Source: Lachnospiraceae bacterium | Lineage (GTDB): Bacteria > Bacillota > Clostridia > Lachnospirales > Lachnospiraceae | Direction: 5' to 3' | Assembly (NCBI GenBank): GCA_028692395.1 | Contig: JAQUXP010000016.1 | Span: forward strand, 5,600-69,599 | Length of the DNA: 64,000 bases | Shown here: in pieces, positions 8,197 through 59,146 of the stretch | Numbering within the stretch: position 1 is the first letter of the stretch | How the letters are laid out: the number at the start of each line of letters is the position of its first letter | Program-made: the position numbers and the translations under genes | The notes under the pieces: generated by a model | What the model saw: only the letters and a program-made list of their open reading frames with translations | What the model was told of the DNA's origin: nothing | Database searches by the model: none

Positions 8197-8235
8197 AAAT
8201 CAGAGCAATTTAGAGATTATTGAAAAACGGACGCA

Positions 8236-8486
8236 GAAAAAGGCTGTCGCACGATGCCGTCCCAGGACAGGAGACTGCTGCCAGACACTGTTTCGGAATC
8301 CAAGAGTATACAAAAAAGAATAGATTTTGCTAAACACGTAAGTATGCAGCACAAACTCGTTTCACTCAAACAGTGTGCTGCATACTTACAACGCAAATTC
8401 TATTCTTTTTGTATACTTAGGATTCCTGCAAATGTGTCTGGCCGCAGTCTCCTGTCCTGGGACGGCATCGTGCGACAGCCTTTTTC
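8236..8486 (+). repeat. long-hairpin repeat family, copy 1 (complete, forward orientation, subfamily A)
   Basis: This 251-bp imperfect palindrome is centred near 8361. Its arms 8236-8288 and 8434-8486 are complementary with one mismatch. It has the conserved junction motifs and apical loop, flanked by an A run and a T run. Confidence 0.9.
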
Positions 8487-11761: not shown

Positions 11762-12685
11762 ATGGCTACAGCAAAGAGGGAAACCAAGAAGAGGATGAGC
11801 AAAGCAGCGCTTCGGGAGGAGCGCTGGGGGCGACTGTTTGTCGCCTCCCCATTCGTTGGCTTCTTATGTTTTATGGCATTTCCGATTGTGTTTGCATTCA
11901 TTGCAAGTATGTCAACCTGGAATGGTATCAACAGTATCACTGATAATTTTGTAGGACTTCAGAACTATATCGATCTGCTCACAGATGCGAAGTTTTGGAA
12001 GGTAATTGGCAATACCCTTATCTACATGATAGGGATTCCCATCGGTATGATTCTTGCACTGATCCTTGCCGTAGGAATGAACCGTAAGATGAAGGGTGTC
12101 AAGATTCTTCGTACAATCTACTACATTCCGGTTGTATCCTCGCTTGTTGCGGTTGCTATCGTATGGATGTGGGTATTCAATTACGATTATGGTCTTTTGA
12201 ACACAGCAATCAAGGCAATCACAGGACAGCATGGTCCCAACTGGCTGGGTGACGAGTTCTGGGTGAAGATTGCCATTATCATCTTTATGGTCTGGAAGGG
12301 GCTTGGTACCTCGATTATCCTGTACCTGTCCGGACTGCAGAGTATCCCAAGAGATTACTATGAAGCGGCAAGAATTGACGGTGCAAACGGACTCTCCCTG
12401 TTCCGCCATATTACCATTCCACTGGTATCTCCGGTAACCTTCTACTTATTAATTATGGGACTCATCGGTGGCTTTCAGGTATTCGTAGAAATCATGGTTA
12501 TGGTTCCAAAGGGTGGTACGAATTACAGTGCAGCAACAATCGTGTTCTACTTGTACGATAAAGCATTCAGCAATCGGCAGATGGGTTATGGTTCAGCCAT
12601 GGCATTCCTGCTTTGTATCCTTATCTTCATCGTGACGTTAATTAACTTCACTATGCAGGATAAGTGGGTTAAAACAATCGATTAA
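11762..12685 (+). CDS. carbohydrate ABC transporter permease (MalF-like)
   Basis: The protein has the EAA-type loop (YYEAARIDGANGLSLFRHITIPL) and six TM segments. Confidence 0.85.
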   Translation: MATAKRETKKRMSKAALREERWGRLFVASPFVGFLCFMAFPIVFAFIASMSTWNGINSITDNFVGLQNYIDLLTDAKFWKVIGNTLIYMIGIPIGMILALILAVGMNRKMKGVKILRTIYYIPVVSSLVAVAIVWMWVFNYDYGLLNTAIKAITGQHGPNWLGDEFWVKIAIIIFMVWKGLGTSIILYLSGLQSIPRDYYEAARIDGANGLSLFRHITIPLVSPVTFYLLIMGLIGGFQVFVEIMVMVPKGGTNYSAATIVFYLYDKAFSNRQMGYGSAMAFLLCILIFIVTLINFTMQDKWVKTID

Positions 12686-16069: not shown

Positions 16070-16086
16070 GTGATGGAAAAACGGAC

Positions 16087-16335
16087 GGGAAGCGCTCGCT
16101 CGCCAAAATGGAGCCCCCCGGGGCGGTTGGCAGAGGACACGGTTTCGGAATCCAAGAGCATCCACAGTGGATTTGATTTTGCGATAGGCGTAAGCGGTCA
16201 GCACAAACTCGCTTCGCTCAGACAGTGTGCTGTCTGCTTACATCGCAAATTCTATTCCACTGGGATGCTTAGGATTCCTGCAAATGTGTCTTCTGCCAAC
16301 CGCCCCGGGGCTCTATTTGGCGAGCGAGCGCTTCC
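16087..16335 (+). repeat. long-hairpin repeat family, copy 2 (complete, forward orientation, distinct outer arms)
   Basis: In this 249-bp imperfect palindrome, GGGAAGCGCTCGCTCGCC pairs with GGCGAGCGAGCGCTTCCC. The junction motifs and apical loop are the same as in the other copies. Confidence 0.9.
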
Positions 16336-16349
16336 CTGGGGTTGGGGAC

Positions 16350-16535
16350 GGTTGGGGGCTGCTCCCTGGCGGGAGGACGCCACCCGCTATATAGGGGAGT
16401 TTGTGGTAGGCGGTTGGGGGGTGCTCCCTGGGGGAGGACGCCTGCTCGGTATATAAGGGAGTTTGTGGTGGGCGCTTGGGGGGTGCTTCCTGGGGGGAGG
16501 ACGCTTGCTCGGTATATAAGGGGGTTAGTGGCAGG
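16350..16535. repeat. tandem repeat, three units of about 62 bp (16350-16411, 16412-16473, 16474-about 16535)
   Basis: Units 1 and 2 are near-identical. Unit 3 contains the stop codon and last codons of the minus-strand CDS 16525..17238. The plus strand is G-rich and the minus strand C-rich. Confidence 0.85.
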
Positions 16536-19053: not shown

Positions 19054-19264
19054 AGTGACCGGAAATCCCTTATGAGGGCGGAACACATTTGCAGAAGTCC
19101 TAAGTATACCAAAACAACCGATTTTGCGTTATAAAAAATCAGCATACTGTCTGAGCACAGCGAGTTTATGTTGATTTTTTATGCTTTTAGCAAAATCGGT
19201 TGTTTTGTGTATACTCTTGGACTTCGAAACCGTGTTCCGCCCTCATAAGGGATTTCCGGTCACT
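19054..19264 (-). repeat. long-hairpin repeat family, copy 3 (complete, reverse orientation, subfamily B)
   Basis: In this 211-bp imperfect palindrome, AGTGACCGGAAATCCCTTATGAGGGCGGAACAC pairs with its complement at 19232-19264. The core motifs are present as reverse complements. Confidence 0.9.
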
Positions 19265-27177: not shown

Positions 27178-27201
27178 ATGCACGAACCTATTATTGAATA
27201 G

Positions 27202-27374
27202 TTATCACAAACCAACCGATTTTGCTAAAATCATAAGAAATCAACATAAACTCTCTGTGCTCAGACAGTATGCTGATTTCTTATAACGCAAAACCGGTTG
27301 TTTTGGTATACTTAGGACTTCTGCAAAGGTGTTCCGCCCGCATAAGGGATTCCCCACCACCAAAGTGGGACAGC
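27202..27374 (+). repeat. long-hairpin repeat family, copy 4 (5-prime-truncated, forward orientation, subfamily B)
   Basis: The inner and middle stems, the apical loop and the complete right arm are present. The left junction motif and left outer arm are missing. Confidence 0.85.
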
Positions 27375-32629: not shown

Positions 32630-32912
32630 AGGAGGGCTGTCCCACTTCGGAGGCTGTCCCGCAATGCTGCTCCCGGATGGGAGACTGCTGCCAGACACTG
32701 TTTCGGAGTCCAAGAGCATATAAAAAAGAATAGATTTTGCTAAAAACGTAAGTATACAGCACAAACTCGTTTCACTCAAACAGTGTGCTGCATACTTACA
32801 ACGCAAATTCTATTCTTTTTCTATGCTTAGGACTCCTGCAAATGTGTCTGGCAGCAGTCTCCCATCCGGGAGCGGCATCGTGGGACAGCCGCCGAAGTGG
32901 GACAGCCCTCCT
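32630..32912 (+). repeat. long-hairpin repeat family, copy 5 (complete and the longest copy, forward orientation, subfamily A)
   Basis: This 283-bp imperfect palindrome is centred near 32771. It fills the whole gap between convergent genes, starting 13 nt after one stop and ending 3 nt before the other. The right arm runs into TTTTTT. Confidence 0.9.
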
Positions 32913-39697: not shown

Positions 39698-40612
39698 GTG
39701 GAAACAGCAAAGAAAAAAGTTAAAATCGGAAAGCGGAAAAGAACGACCTATCTTTATGGCTATCTGTTTATTGCCCCGACGGTGATCGGTGTTATGGTGC
39801 TGAATCTGTGGTCTGTAATACAGTCTTTTTATTACAGCTTCAATGAAGTAAAAGGATTTGCAGCTCCAAAGTTTATCGGGCTTGCCAACTATGCAAGACT
39901 CTTTGGAGATGCAGAGATCTGGCGTTCCATCGGAAACACCTTTTTGTATTCTCTGATTACGGTACCCCTGGGCGTATTGCTTTCGCTGGTAGTTGCAGTT
40001 CTTCTAAATGCAAAGATCAAAGGAAAAGGAGTCTTTCGATGCATCTATTTCCTTCCGGTCGTATCTGCTCCCGCAGCTGTTGCCCTTGTATGGAAATGGC
40101 TCTATAACAAGGACTATGGTTTGATTAATGAGATGCTAAGCGCTATCGGCATTGGGCGCATCGACTGGCTTGGAAAGCCATCCATGGCACTGATCTCTGT
40201 AGCGATTGTAGGAATCTGGACTATGGTAGGTTATAACATGGTAATTCTGATTGCAGGTCTGCAGGACATTCCCAAAGGACTGTACGAAGCAGCGGAGATT
40301 GACGGCGCAGGACCATTTGCAAAGTTTTTTAAGATTACCCTGCCTATGGTATCCCCAACTCTGTTTTTTGTCAGTGTGACTACCATCATCAGTTCTCTGC
40401 AGGTATTTGATCTGATTTACATGATGATGAAACCCAGCAGTCCGGCCTTTAAGAGCGTAGAATCTATTGTATATCTGTTCTACCGCTACACATTTACCAG
40501 TTATAACAAGGGTTATGGATCTGCAATTGTTGTTCTGCTGTTTGTCATTATCCTGTTTATTACATTTATTCAGATGAAGCTGCAGAAAAAATGGGTTCAC
40601 TATAACGACTGA
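39698..40612 (+). CDS. carbohydrate ABC transporter permease (MalF-like)
   Basis: The GTG start lies 8 nt after AGGAGG. The EAA loop reads YEAAEIDGAGPFAKFFKITLPM. Confidence 0.85.
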   Translation: METAKKKVKIGKRKRTTYLYGYLFIAPTVIGVMVLNLWSVIQSFYYSFNEVKGFAAPKFIGLANYARLFGDAEIWRSIGNTFLYSLITVPLGVLLSLVVAVLLNAKIKGKGVFRCIYFLPVVSAPAAVALVWKWLYNKDYGLINEMLSAIGIGRIDWLGKPSMALISVAIVGIWTMVGYNMVILIAGLQDIPKGLYEAAEIDGAGPFAKFFKITLPMVSPTLFFVSVTTIISSLQVFDLIYMMMKPSSPAFKSVESIVYLFYRYTFTSYNKGYGSAIVVLLFVIILFITFIQMKLQKKWVHYND

Positions 40613-53666: not shown

Positions 53667-53909
53667 GGGAGTGCCGCACCTGGGGCCTGCAAGGTCCTGC
53701 TCAGCGTCTGCTCACATTTGCAGAAGTCCTAAGAATCCCGGAAGCATCCATTTTGTGTTGTAAGCATCCAGCATACTGTCTGAGCACAGCGAGTTTATGC
53801 TGGATGCTTACGTCTTTAGCAAAATTGATGGTTTCGTGGATTCTCTTGGGCTTCGAAACCGTGAGCAGACGCCAAGCAGGACCTTGCAGGCCCCAGGTGC
53901 GGCACTTCC
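53667..53909 (-). repeat. long-hairpin repeat family, copy 6 (complete, reverse orientation, distinct outer arms)
   Basis: In this 243-bp imperfect palindrome, GGGAGTGCCGCACCTGGGGCCTGCAAGGTCCTGC pairs with its complement at 53876-53909. It is flanked by an A run and a T run, and the core motifs are present as reverse complements. Confidence 0.9.
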
Positions 53910-57292: not shown

Positions 57293-58165
57293 ATGCAGAA
57301 AAAGCGTAGAATGTGGGGTTGGGCATTTGTGATGCCACAGCTGATAGGACTAATTATATTTGCACTGATTCCATTGGGCATGAGTTTTTTTATCAGCTTC
57401 CATTCCTGGGACGGTATCGCTGCTTCCATGGGATTTGTAGGAATCAAGAATTATATCAACCAGTTTTTTGATGCAGACTTTGTAAAGGCACTGATCAATA
57501 CCTTGCTGTATTCGGTAATGTATATCCCGATTAATATGGTATTTGCACTTTTGCTGGCACTGGCTGTTCAAAAAATAAAAGGAAAAACCCTGTATCGTCT
57601 GTTTTACTTTATGCCGGTAGTAACAGGTTCTGTTTCTGTAGGCGTGATCTGGACCTGGATCCTGAACGGAGACTTTGGACTGATGAATTCCATCCTGTCT
57701 TTCTTCGGTATCAATGGTCCAAAGTGGCTGACGGATCCATCCATGGTTCTGACCTCCATAGTCATTGTTTCTGTGTGGTGGAATGTGGGTTACAATATGG
57801 TACTTCTGCTTGCCGGGTTACAGAATATCCCGGAAGTGTATTATGAGGCAGCCCAGATTGACGGAGCAAATAAGTGGAATACATTTCGCCATATTACATT
57901 GCCGATGCTTTCTCCTACGTTGTTCTTTGTATTAATTAATACCATCATCAGCTCCTTCCAGGTATTTGATCAGGCATTTGTAATGACGCATGGCGGGCCG
58001 ATGAAGGCGAGCTATACGCTGGTTTATCATATCTACCAGAATGCATTTATCGACTTTAAGATGGGTCGTGCCTGTGCTTCTTCGATGATATTATTTGCAA
58101 TTGTTTTGATTATTACTTTAGCTCAGATGTATGGATCAAAAAGGTGGGTGAATTATGAACAGTAA
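57293..58165 (+). CDS. carbohydrate ABC transporter permease (MalF-like)
   Basis: The EAA loop reads YYEAAQIDGANKWNTFRHITLPM. Confidence 0.85.
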   Translation: MQKKRRMWGWAFVMPQLIGLIIFALIPLGMSFFISFHSWDGIAASMGFVGIKNYINQFFDADFVKALINTLLYSVMYIPINMVFALLLALAVQKIKGKTLYRLFYFMPVVTGSVSVGVIWTWILNGDFGLMNSILSFFGINGPKWLTDPSMVLTSIVIVSVWWNVGYNMVLLLAGLQNIPEVYYEAAQIDGANKWNTFRHITLPMLSPTLFFVLINTIISSFQVFDQAFVMTHGGPMKASYTLVYHIYQNAFIDFKMGRACASSMILFAIVLIITLAQMYGSKRWVNYEQ

Positions 58166-58997: not shown

Positions 58998-59006
58998 AAA
59001 AATTAG

Positions 59007-59146
59007 ATAAAAAAGAATAGAATTTGCTAAAAACGTAAGTATACAGCACAAACTCGTTTCACTCAGACAGTGTGCTGCATACTTACAACACAAATTCTAT
59101 TCTTTTTCGTATGCTTAGGACTCCTGCAAATGTGTCTGGCAGCAGT
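59007..59146 (+). repeat. long-hairpin repeat family, copy 7 (5-prime-truncated, forward orientation, subfamily A)
   Basis: The copy starts 9 nt after the permease stop. It has the inner stems, apical loop and right junction motif, but lacks the left junction and both outer arms. Confidence 0.85.

Follow-up and report, generated by a model that had tools for sequence, protein, structure and literature searches.

Several classes of bacterial DNA repeat fold into hairpins and can be compared with the family described here. The defining features of a MITE are terminal inverted repeats that are conserved, duplication of the target site and a transposase partner whose element has the same termini. 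Correia/NEMIS, ERIC, RUP and BOX elements are short, non-coding, multi-copy hairpins located near gene ends and often co-transcribed. Bacterial MITEs and palindromic repeats can act as terminators or RNase targets, and their copy number varies widely between related species. Intergenic hairpins are also the targets of IS1397/ISKpn1 and of group IIC introns, which encode their own enzyme and have defined ends. REPINs are REP doublets that form hairpins and are mobilized by RAYT transposases (Bertels and Rainey, 2011; PMC3116915); fixed spacing and compensatory changes have been documented for these mobile DNA hairpins (PMC3116915). Most descriptions of REPINs concern Proteobacteria and cyanobacteria. 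A REP unit spans about 20-35 nt and forms an imperfect palindrome by itself, usually with a GTAG head, and the repeats flank a single-copy RAYT (Y1 HUH) gene. The single-strand origin (sso) of rolling-circle plasmids works only as a folded single strand. In the ssoA type, the stem contains an RSB motif (TTATGCCGAGAAAATTT-like) and the terminal loop contains CS-6 (TAGCGT) (PMC4598088). In the attC sites of integrons the base of the hairpin is conserved (R''/L''...L'/R', GTTRRRY) and the middle varies.

The repeat analyzed here, which occurs in a window of 64 kb (the whole stretch of DNA studied), resembles each of these systems in part. Like Correia/NEMIS, ERIC, RUP and BOX it is short, non-coding, multi-copy, hairpin-forming and adjoins gene ends. 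Its position, at or in pre-existing intergenic hairpins downstream of genes, recalls IS1397/ISKpn1 and group IIC introns, but, unlike them, it encodes nothing. In contrast to a MITE, its termini are its most variable part and no duplication is visible. With REPINs it shares (i) two invariant inverted motifs at a fixed distance, the intervening sequence being free as long as it is paired, with compensatory changes, (ii) an intergenic, high-copy, clustered or nested distribution with subfamilies within one genome, and (iii) a 5' tail outside the hairpin, corresponding to the leader of copies c1, c2 and c4. It differs from REPINs in that (i) it is 2-3 times longer, (ii) its conserved parts are internal loops and an apical loop instead of a 16-mer REP with GTAG, (iii) its variable stems reach beyond the conserved motifs, and (iv) no RAYT was seen. 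The sso likewise combines a long imperfect hairpin with conserved terminal-loop and stem motifs and otherwise variable sequence, whereas the present element is dispersed over the chromosome in multiple copies and has no rep gene in its vicinity. It is similar to attC in being an imperfect palindrome of variable length and sequence, whose conserved asymmetric (extrahelical) features could mark one strand. An integron attC site (RYYYAAC ... GTTRRRY) was nevertheless rejected: the conserved and variable parts are swapped, the GTTTCGG of junction J1 (see below) misfits GTTRRRY, neither an integrase nor a cassette array is present, and the neighboring genes converge and are ordinary chromosomal ones. 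Terminal motifs of the IS6, Tn3 or RSS type were likewise rejected, the resemblance being weak.

We favor, at a probability of roughly 0.55, the reading that this is a non-autonomous hairpin mobile element, MITE/REPIN-like but without conserved termini, which has spread recently in this uncultured Lachnospiraceae lineage and represents a branch of an uncatalogued, multi-phylum family.

Architecture of the repeat family

Five full and two left-arm-deleted copies, with hairpins of 210-283 bp, were distinguished in the window (Table 1). The initial annotation had placed seven copies; their coordinates and orientations were confirmed, apart from the start of c7, whose homology begins near 58999 and not at 59007. 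A search of the 64-kb window with a covariance model of the cores revealed no further copy. The four-layer architecture proposed earlier (outer stem, junction J1, middle stem, junction J2, inner stem and a loop of ~21 nt) is correct, and all of the conserved motifs named with it are present, with 5-7 occurrences against 0.01-0.07 in shuffled sequence: the left junction GTTTCGRARYCCAAGAG occurs five times (0.07 expected) and the right junction CTTAGGRYTYCTGCAAATGTG seven times (0.01 expected). The elements are non-coding, as had been stated.

Table 1. Coordinates of the repeat copies and of their components within the window.
Feature	Position	Strand	Description
c1	8236..8486	+	full hairpin, converging larC-like/L25 genes; A-run left and T-run right of outer stem
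c1 5' leader, outside hairpin	8217..8235	+	ATTATTGAAAAACGGAC...
c2	16087..16335	+	full hairpin, 18 nt past GH43 stop; leader GGAAAAACGGAC before
c3	19054..19264	-	full hairpin, converging SNF symporter/P-type ATPase genes; 33-bp outer stem perfect
c4 (c3 subfamily)	27190..27374	+	without left outer arm, J1L and part of middle stem
c5 (flagged copy)	32630..32912	+	full hairpin, then TTTTTT
c5 left outer arm	32630..32698	+	GGCTGTCCCRC unit twice, 17-nt period; mirrored in right arm 32847-32912
c5 J1 left	32700..32716	+	GTTTCGGAGTCCAAGAG; pairs with J1 right 32826-32846 (CTTAGGACTCCTGCAAATGTG)
c5 J2 left	32734..32752	+	ATTTTGC TAAAAAC GTAAG
c5 apical loop	32763..32783	+	AAACTCGTTTCACTCAAACAG; motif also in hairpins of other phyla
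c5 J2 right	32795-32808	+	CTTAC AAC GCAAAT; with J2 left forms asymmetric 7x3 internal loop
c6	53667..53909	-	full hairpin, 8 nt past glycosidase stop, upstream of lacI-type gene; A-run/T-run flanks
c7 (c1/c5 subfamily)	58999..59146	+	without left arm and J1L; right outer arm cut after CTGGCAGCAGT

Every full copy folds as one long hairpin (dG of -130 to -214 kcal/mol), and the fold of c5 has a z-score of -24 relative to shuffles. No gap is needed to align the 171-nt cores of the five full copies, and in all five the left and right parts of J1 (J1L and J1R) are invariant and equally spaced. These parts lie 33-69 nt inward from the element ends, and the outer stems beyond them vary between subfamilies. 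The stems had been described as completely different between subfamilies; the subfamilies do differ, but the arms of c1, c5 and c7 are homologous to each other, as are those of c3 and c4, and the GTGGGACAGC motif of c1 and c5 also occurs in the distal arm of c4. The possibility that the outer stems form a separate repeat family was rejected, as no solo outer stems are found in the window.

J1 and J2 represent variants of a single bipartite module (ATTTGC-Nx-TAAG / CTTA-Nx-GCAAAT), which is present four times per element, as nested inverted pairs. Conserved bulges interrupt the J1 helix of c5, which also has two conserved G·T pairs. Neither J1L nor J1R is able to form a hairpin by itself (GGANTCC leaves a 1-nt loop), and GTAG is absent from both, so they do not qualify as REP units.

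The 5' leader is fullest in c1 (ATTATTGAAAAACGGAC); it is partly shared with c2 (16075-16086), to which the GAAAAACGGAC portion is common, and its start is shared with c4 (27190-27198). Besides this leader start, the latter copy retains J2, the apical loop, J1R and a right arm, which terminates in GTGGGACAGC and a T-run. It is an internal deletion and not a 5' truncation, because the first 9 nt of the leader (ATTATTGAA), which lies outside the hairpin, are still there.

Covariation of the stems

The stems of the window copies covary strongly. Changes on both sides were found in 29 of 64 stem pairs, compared with 13.4±2.4 in shuffles (0 of 500 shuffles reached 29) and with 3-7 pairs in slid controls. 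Where one arm has an indel or the 17-nt duplication, the other arm has its mirror image. Conserved structure with free-running stems had been taken as the signature of a structured RNA or a folded single-stranded DNA site. Its premise, strong covariation, stands, but covariation does not single out RNA: strong covariation in a long inverted repeat is, alone, no evidence for a functional RNA, and such a pattern is also reported for the mobile DNA hairpins of REPINs (PMC3116915). On the forward strand of the window copies, G·U (G·T) mismatches are as common as A·C ones, so the covariation is not strand-specific. The loop-spanning G·U pairs of these copies number 22 on the forward strand and 27 on the reverse; in the wider set the counts are 24 and 49, respectively, favoring the reverse strand if anything.

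These counts bear on the possibility of a structured RNA, either a cis-acting 3'-UTR element or a small RNA gene family, in which the copies would be multiple functional genes and not selfish DNA, with a protein binding to their conserved apical and internal loops, or with these loops building a fold of catalytic or regulatory function. We regard this as unlikely. It would accommodate the strong covariation with conserved unpaired motifs, the exactly fixed core length and, in the relatives described below, a covarying pseudoknot and unpaired motifs conserved across phyla, as well as a 44-nt stretch that is 97.7% identical between Parabacteroides and Ilyobacter. The copies are also probably transcribed, because they lie 2-40 nt past a same-strand or converging gene. 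However, G·U does not outnumber A·C on either strand of the window copies, two copies persist although one of their arms is deleted, and the element is dispensable, since sister species lack it and its presence varies among Ralstonia strains. Its orientation to neighboring genes is mixed (in co-directional contexts ~5 are sense and ~4 antisense, and inverted pairs also occur), and the impression that the element is always oriented like the upstream gene does not hold at m1 or in the wider family. No conserved promoter was seen in the copies: a promoter-like match on the reverse strand of c1 and c3 (TTAGCA-N17-TATACT) is not kept in c2, c5 and c6, which differ at the -10 position. Furthermore, the Rfam check suggested earlier gave no match at gathering thresholds for the whole window; at E<=10 only spurious miRNA-precursor hairpins, far below threshold, were reported for c5, and at E<=1 no Rfam 15 family matched relatives L021-L037.

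Hairpins with the same loop in other phyla

The apical loop AACTCGCTnnGCTCArACAG (~20 nt) also crowns hairpins of Ralstonia, Variovorax, Butyrivibrio, Ilyobacter, Fusobacterium, Parabacteroides, Chondrinema and IMG/VR contigs. These hairpins are intergenic, have unrelated neighbors and occur in at least four phyla; the motif (AACTCGCT..GCTCArACAG) forms the apex of stems that are unrelated in sequence. Eight of the nine exact loop matches in IMG/VR are hairpin apices, against ~1 chance match expected from a rough estimate of the collection size, and 148 PLSDB records match the loop motif. Structures were checked for the Ralstonia, Butyrivibrio, Fusobacterium, Chondrinema, Parabacteroides and Variovorax members and for one Ilyobacter copy (L037); in the other Ilyobacter copy (L032) the automated fold leaves the loop unclosed.

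Some distant members appear to share further blocks of the family, corresponding to J2 (GCTAAA / CTTAACGC) and J1 (AATCCAAG / CTWAGGATT). Of 19 members, 6 have TTAACG on the right side of the loop, at a distance of 11 or 34-35 nt (0.28 expected), and 4 have GCTAA on its left side (1.3 expected); one relative (L023) matches the window model across J2-loop-J2 with 54.6 bits. Ilyobacter has a J1-like helix, but placed inside J2, and the Ralstonia and Variovorax members are devoid of the J2 and J1 blocks. Homology between the window copies and the distant members rests on the 20-nt loop and short blocks, the distant members having been found by searching with the loop.

In the relatives a TCAAG block pairs with the loop of a 5' hairpin instead of with the 3' arm, forming a pseudoknot that covaries in four variants (CTTGAA:TTCAAG, CTTGAT:ATCAAG, CTTGATT:AATCAAG and CTTGAC:GTCAAG). 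The helix is preserved in the wider relatives while its strands are connected differently, in agreement with a folded single strand.

Such a strand could be DNA. The elements might be single-stranded DNA sites derived from rolling-circle or conjugative elements (an sso-like priming hairpin or an HUH substrate), now relics or the cis-part of a rolling-circle or single-stranded DNA transposon, although we consider this distinctly improbable. The small 5' hairpin has a CTTGAT or CTTGAA loop in several relatives, resembling the CTTGATA nick site of pC194/phiX174-type Rep proteins; the window copies, however, do not have it. G·T and A·C are both tolerated, as expected if no single strand acts as RNA. 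A long imperfect hairpin with terminal-loop and stem motifs is the architecture of an sso (PMC8860593), but both ssoA signatures, RSB and CS-6, are absent, and the reverse strand of the loop offers only AAGCGA, a 4/6 match. No Rep, relaxase or HUH gene adjoins any copy examined, and seven copies in 64 kb of ordinary chromosome are unlike the distribution of an origin.

The J1R 21-mer is present in one other genome among 185,579 species representatives. In this second carrier species the J1 sequence is identical, the interior is different and the flanking genes are unrelated; tblastn of its loci against the window found no shared genes. No match to the core was obtained by blastn in the PLSDB plasmids and INPHARED phages, and none to J1R and J1L in IMG/VR; two J1R matches in JGI metagenomes were dismissed as chance, being without a hairpin. 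Scanning IMG/VR for hairpin A/block B returned only L029, which was already known. Literature searches by motif strings and for Lachnospiraceae MITE hairpins gave no description matching the element, and none was found on REPIN/RAYT in Firmicutes.

Genomic context and amplification

The seven copies begin shortly after stop codons, and five of them lie between convergent genes. The flagged copy, c5, sits 14 nt past the stop codon of an ABC ATPase gene and 4 nt from that of an AraC gene, and c7 begins 2-10 nt past an ABC permease stop codon. According to a manual gene map drawn from the ORF list, the copies occupy 5 of ~10 convergent spacers, 2 of ~30 co-directional spacers and none of the divergent ones. 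Copies c1, c4, c5 and c6 (4/7) end in a terminator-like T-run, with a matching left A-run in c1 and c6, and c2, c3 and c7 have no such ending. No tRNA or tmRNA genes were found in the window.

Pairwise identity reaches 90-95% for c1/c5, c5/c7 and c3/c4, while the stems of the subfamilies differ by ~50%, which indicates repeated and recent amplification. In ~75 kb of syntenic or related DNA of the nearest relatives (67-72% identity for L25) the element is absent; the larC-L25 spacer, which measures 329 nt in the window, is 141 nt long in a relative and contains a plain terminator.

A related element is polymorphic in Ralstonia: strain GMI1000 carries it at the glgB-glgX site, where MAFF241647 and PSI07 have only a plain hairpin. 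In the filled allele the element is inside that hairpin, with the target hairpin on both sides in inverted orientation. The polymorphism could be due to deletion rather than insertion. In R. wenshanensis, 18 places match the 1.9-kb query.

The initial annotation had reported no transposase or integrase in the window, no shared terminal inverted repeats and no target-site duplications, and had concluded that the repeat is not a standard MITE. The observations hold: no transposase was identified by Pfam among 20 window proteins (the products of the genes flanking all seven copies and six others), nor among the neighboring genes of the relatives examined; the element ends differ between subfamilies; and no duplication is present in the 70-nt flanks of nine copies, where nothing is shared except the 5' leader of c1, c2 and c4. 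Given these results, the mobility of the window copies is only putative. The element is indeed non-standard, but the view that it is not mobile is wrong, because it is absent from the syntenic sites of sister species and its Ralstonia site is filled or empty depending on the strain; the copies behave as recently amplified, dispensable insertions. The element is thus best described as a non-standard, MITE-like repeat and not evidently as a cellular RNA gene.

The same context might instead be that of an immobile host DNA site, such as an array to which a nucleoid or regulatory protein binds, or of enlarged bidirectional terminators spread by gene conversion. The enrichment between convergent genes, the T-run endings (two of the four with a matching left A-run) and the fourfold bipartite module of J1 and J2 are in line with it, and yet we judge it very improbable. 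Sister species have plain short terminators at the same sites, the second species combines an identical J1 with unrelated flanking genes and a different interior, a double-stranded site would hardly account for the permuted connectivity that the J1 helix has in relatives, and gene conversion between unlinked terminators would not create the family initially.

Although the window derives from a metagenome-assembled genome (MAG) and palindromes do break short-read assemblies, false palindromes produced by assembly are a negligible explanation, given seven diverged copies with intact genes on both sides. Two MAGs of the second species, assembled independently, contain the same element without internal differences, Logan contigs of two different samples include the beginning of the outer stem, and relatives are present in finished genomes (e.g., Ralstonia GMI1000). 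The Logan contigs that encode window proteins derive from run SRR22315505.

Proposed mode of spread and its consequences

If the repeat is a non-autonomous mobile hairpin, as we favor, the elements would lodge in intergenic hairpins, and their spread would require the element to be folded as a single strand, of either RNA or DNA. A putative trans-acting protein would read the conserved unpaired motifs, and presumably only well-paired copies would propagate; as a consequence, differences between subfamilies would be compensated, and resident copies would decay by random transitions. Templated copying between the arms probably also keeps them alike. As a side effect, the copies would constitute very long 3' hairpins or terminators for the flanking genes.

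A more specific proposal, which we put forward tentatively and hold to be rather unlikely, is that of an uncatalogued, cross-phylum class of structured mobile elements, defined by a folded strand (RNA or single-stranded DNA) with an invariant 20-nt loop and modular internal loops. Such elements would be the substrate of a dedicated enzyme, or self-processing, and would home into the apices of intergenic hairpins, unlike DDE MITEs and REP/RAYT.

Should the favored reading be true, gut Lachnospiraceae and several other phyla carry small hairpin parasites that are in none of the RNA or repeat catalogues searched, and a density of ~1 copy per 9 kb would shape the 3' ends, terminators and mRNA stability of many genes. 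The invariant loop and the permuted J1 helix provide a handle for finding the protein that recognizes the element, and the strain polymorphism of Ralstonia solanacearum offers a culturable system in which to watch it move. The element also breaks short-read assemblies, which was seen directly in Logan contigs, where the break falls 31 nt into the palindrome.

Structure and variability of the hairpin copies

The reading that we favor, with a probability of about 0.55, is that the copies in the window belong to an uncatalogued family of non-autonomous hairpin elements that spans several phyla and lives in intergenic hairpins, and that they form a branch of it amplified in this lineage. "Uncatalogued" refers here to Rfam and to the literature searched for exact motifs; ISfinder, Dfam or a subscription paper may list the element.

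All seven copies (c1–c7) described in the initial annotation were recovered with their positions and orientations, with two corrections: the start of c7 was refined, and c4 is an internal deletion, as the first 9 nt of its 5′ leader outside the hairpin are retained, which rules out a 5′ truncation. The motif on the left side of the first junction (J1-left) occurs 5 times in the window (0.07 expected from shuffles) and that on the right side (J1-right) 7 times (0.01 expected). Each of the five full copies (c1, c2, c3, c5 and c6) forms one single hairpin of 210–283 nt (dG −130 to −214 kcal/mol); the folding z-score of c5 is −24 for the plus and −26 for the minus strand. The cores of these copies, defined as J1-left, J1-right and everything between them plus 10 nt on either side, align over 171 columns with zero gaps, in which the J1 and inner (J2) junctions and the apical loop are invariant and the middle and inner stems differ at up to approximately half of the positions. 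A covariance model built from this alignment retrieves all seven copies and no other in the window.

The outer stems, initially considered unrelated between subfamilies, have a mosaic make-up, with the groups c1/c5/c7, c3/c4, c2 and c6. Part of the leader (GAAAAACGGAC) is common to c1 and c2 despite the unrelated outer stems of these two copies, and the shared leader may mark either where the element really starts on its 5′ side or a target that it prefers. A promoter-like match in c1 and c3 is made up of J2-left together with the beginning of the middle stem; c2, c5 and c6 have other sequence at its −10 position.

Coordinates of features in the window and at related loci
Feature	Location	Strand	Remarks
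c7, start	window, near 58999
c1, leader outside hairpin	window 8217-8235		fuller form, ATTATTGAAAAACGGAC
c2, leader outside hairpin	window 16075-16086		GAAAAACGGAC, in common with c1
c4, leader outside hairpin	window 27190-27198		start ATTATTGAA, common to c1 and c4
Promoter-like TTAGCA-N17-TATACT, c1	window 8305-8333	-	reverse strand of copy
Promoter-like TTAGCA-N17-TATACT, c3	window 19187-19215	+	reverse strand of copy
G-rich tandem units	window 16349-16531		three copies of ~62 nt, CGGTTGGGGGCTGCTCCCTGGCGGGAGGACGCC...TATATAGGGGAGTTTGTGG
Sugar ABC-transporter permease genes	window 12401-12432, 40286-40412, 57845-57971		paralogous; stretches 66-90% identical (repeat families D6, D8, D11)
m2 (STD2_98) with bracketing inverted pair	L002 7425-7445, 7690-7715; same as L019 8750-9040		upstream of feoA/feoB and fur
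Tail-to-tail units, Parabacteroides distasonis NZ_OY725754.1	L035 1405-1640, 1790-1950		around 24-aa 'smalltalk protein' ORF (NF033879)
Partial repeat of hairpin A	L035 1950-2000		extra
Member in type I-D CRISPR-Cas operon	L029 2597-2690	-	between csc2 and next cas gene, antisense to cas
Type II hammerhead ribozyme	L026 3881-3947	-	71.9 bits (gathering 37); ~9.6 kb from loop-motif hairpin, same IMG/VR contig
Lysine riboswitch, Ilyobacter	L037 4511-4695	+	upstream of lysA
tRNA gene	L025 10888-10961	-	~160 nt downstream of hairpin's loop motif

Genomic context

The window lies on a 73-kb contig from an NCBI MAG that carries the label Lachnospiraceae bacterium. When compared with 15 billion sequences at 90% identity, most of the proteins encoded there remain singletons, and the lineage is therefore poorly sampled. 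All seven copies are intergenic and start 2–40 nt past a stop codon. According to an approximate gene map read manually from the ORF list, they occupy 5 of about 10 spacers between convergent genes, 2 of about 30 between co-directional genes and none between divergent genes. The copies are flanked by ordinary genes (larC-like, L25, GH43, SNF symporter, P-type ATPase, MFS, ABC, AraC, LacI and glycosidases). In agreement with the initial annotation, neither a transposase nor an integrase, nor a reverse transcriptase, was found among 20 window proteins scanned, including those encoded next to all seven copies. Four of the seven copies (c1, c4, c5 and c6) end with a T-run, and c1 and c6 also carry the matching A-run, a pairing like that of bidirectional terminators. 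The G-rich tandem units (Table) lie directly 3′ of c2, between this copy and the end of a DUF134/NifB-like gene. The permease repeats are ordinary paralogy, separate from the hairpin family.

Distribution of the element

A search of 185,579 species representatives for the J1-right 21-mer gave a single further genome, Lachnospiraceae MAG STD2_98, which carries two copies (m1 and m2). No true copy was found in JGI metagenomes (two matches are due to chance), and IMG/VR gave no match to this 21-mer. Both m1 and m2 have a J1 identical to that of the window copies and a different interior; the CTCAGACA motif recurs in an internal loop. Two MAG assemblies made independently agree throughout the m2 element; their two differences over the 460 nt compared fall in the 3′ flank. 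The m2 copy stands between the arms of an additional inverted pair, TTATCATTCAC...GTGAATGATAA, which resembles a Fur box and raises the question of whether the element may have split or duplicated an operator.

The nearest relatives by L25 (72, 68 and 67% identity) show synteny to the window, having the order GH43...SBP-DUF624-L25-larC in common. No hairpin copy was found in about 75 kb of their sequence, and their larC-L25 spacer is 141 nt long and holds a plain bidirectional terminator, compared with 329 nt in the window. The amplification of the hairpin element appears recent and lineage-restricted. In two samples, Logan contigs stop after the first 31 nt of the c1 outer stem: since they reach this stem, both samples contain the element, and their ending there explains why short-read assemblies break at it.

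Covariation and comparison with known element classes

RNAalifold predicted 64 pairs in the five-copy core, of which 29 show both-sided changes and only 2 one-sided (wobble) changes. The former number exceeds both column shuffles (13.4±2.4; 0 of 500 reach 29) and slid partners (3–7), so pairing is maintained, as the proposal of a selected structure had anticipated. Such covariation could also be attributed to selection on one RNA strand, i.e., to a structured RNA rather than a mobile element. This part of the initial interpretation is not supported, although the folded single-strand element itself is a reasonable one: (i) A·C stem mismatches are about as frequent as G·T; (ii) with both strands folded alike, the forward strand has 22 G·U pairs that span the loop and the reverse strand 27 in the window type, with 24 and 49, respectively, in the wider family; (iii) two indels between c1 and c5 are mirrored in both arms, and c5 has two GGCTGTCCCRC units at a spacing of 17 nt in each of its arms; (iv) m1 and m2 show the same pattern, with three differences compensated and one uncompensated; and (v) the same signature is described for mobile DNA hairpins (REPINs), in which inverted motifs stay invariant and keep a constant spacing while the sequence between them changes in a compensatory manner (PMC3116915). 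If propagation requires pairing, subfamily founders would be well paired and resident copies would then decay through random transitions, possibly with templated correction from arm to arm. The folded strand may be RNA or ssDNA.

The kind to which the element belongs, hairpin-forming interspersed repeats, is already known, and the window element is a variant thereof. It shares the hairpin, fixed spacing and compensation of REPINs but lacks a REP unit. The nearest structural analogue of a hairpin formed by the single strand only is the ssoA single-strand origin, whose RSB and CS-6 are both absent. In comparison with integron attC sites, the conserved and variable parts are reversed. Neither the conserved termini nor the target-site duplications of a classical MITE were found, consistent with the initial observation. 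Searches of Rfam with the window, c5 and wider-family relatives, a check suggested at the outset, matched no family, and the exact motifs were not found in the literature. Less probably, the element represents a mobile element of a new class, one that depends on structure and has either a dedicated enzyme or self-processing activity.

The wider loop-motif family

The members of the wider family were found by searching with the loop motif, and their homology beyond the loop is partial. Of nine IMG/VR matches, eight lie at the apex of hairpins with unrelated stems, in AT-rich and GC-rich contigs alike; the ninth is coding and looks like chance. A 34-nt blastn query matched 148 PLSDB records: 128 of Ralstonia megaplasmids (2–6 places each), Butyrivibrio fibrisolvens of the Lachnospiraceae (a 223-nt near-perfect hairpin), and Variovorax, Ilyobacter, Fusobacterium, Chondrinema and Parabacteroides; E. 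coli gave no match. The neighboring genes are unrelated between cases (phage tail, type I-D cas, katG/ubiA, ECF/panE, Ada/AlkB and amidase/HU).

A subset of members has GCTAAA left and CTTAACGC right of the loop, corresponding to J2, and one locus (L023) scores 54.6 bits against the window model through J2-loop-J2. Six of 19 members (0.28 expected) carry TTAACG, and its distances from the loop are fixed. In Ilyobacter, AAATCCAAG / CTAAGGATTT correspond to J1, placed inside J2; homology beyond the loop is absent in the Ralstonia and Variovorax group. In many members, a small hairpin (A) comes first, and its loop pairs with the next block (ACCAAAAGTTCAAGGCTG) in a pseudoknot that covaries in four variants. 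Window J1-left resembles this block, its partner coming from the 3′ arm rather than from a 5′ hairpin. Because the J1 helix is kept while the connectivity is permuted, the arrangement suggests that what is conserved is a folded single strand. The members from Firmicutes form long, symmetric hairpins, and those of Bacteroidota, Fusobacteriota and betaproteobacteria carry the 5′ module. Parabacteroides and Ilyobacter share a 44-nt module at 97.7% identity, and two units stand tail to tail at the Ralstonia (L030), Parabacteroides and Variovorax (L036) loci.

Filled and empty sites in Ralstonia

The glgB-glgX spacer of strain GMI1000 contains two inverted units (about 450 bp together). In MAFF241647 and PSI07, this place is taken up only by a hairpin of about 75 nt, composed of TTTGGTCTTGGTGGTGCATC arms and an apical GC-rich hairpin. 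In the filled allele, this apical hairpin flanks the insert on either side as inverted copies. These alleles indicate that the wider family is polymorphic between strains and lodged in pre-existing intergenic hairpins, matching the terminator-like outermost stems of the window copies; the strain difference may be a gain or a loss, by insertion or excision. In R. wenshanensis, 18 places match a 1.9-kb query. At the empty site (L038/L039, compared with L030), the apical hairpin is inverted between PSI07 and MAFF241647 within constant 20-bp inverted arms, as would be expected from recombination between the arms.
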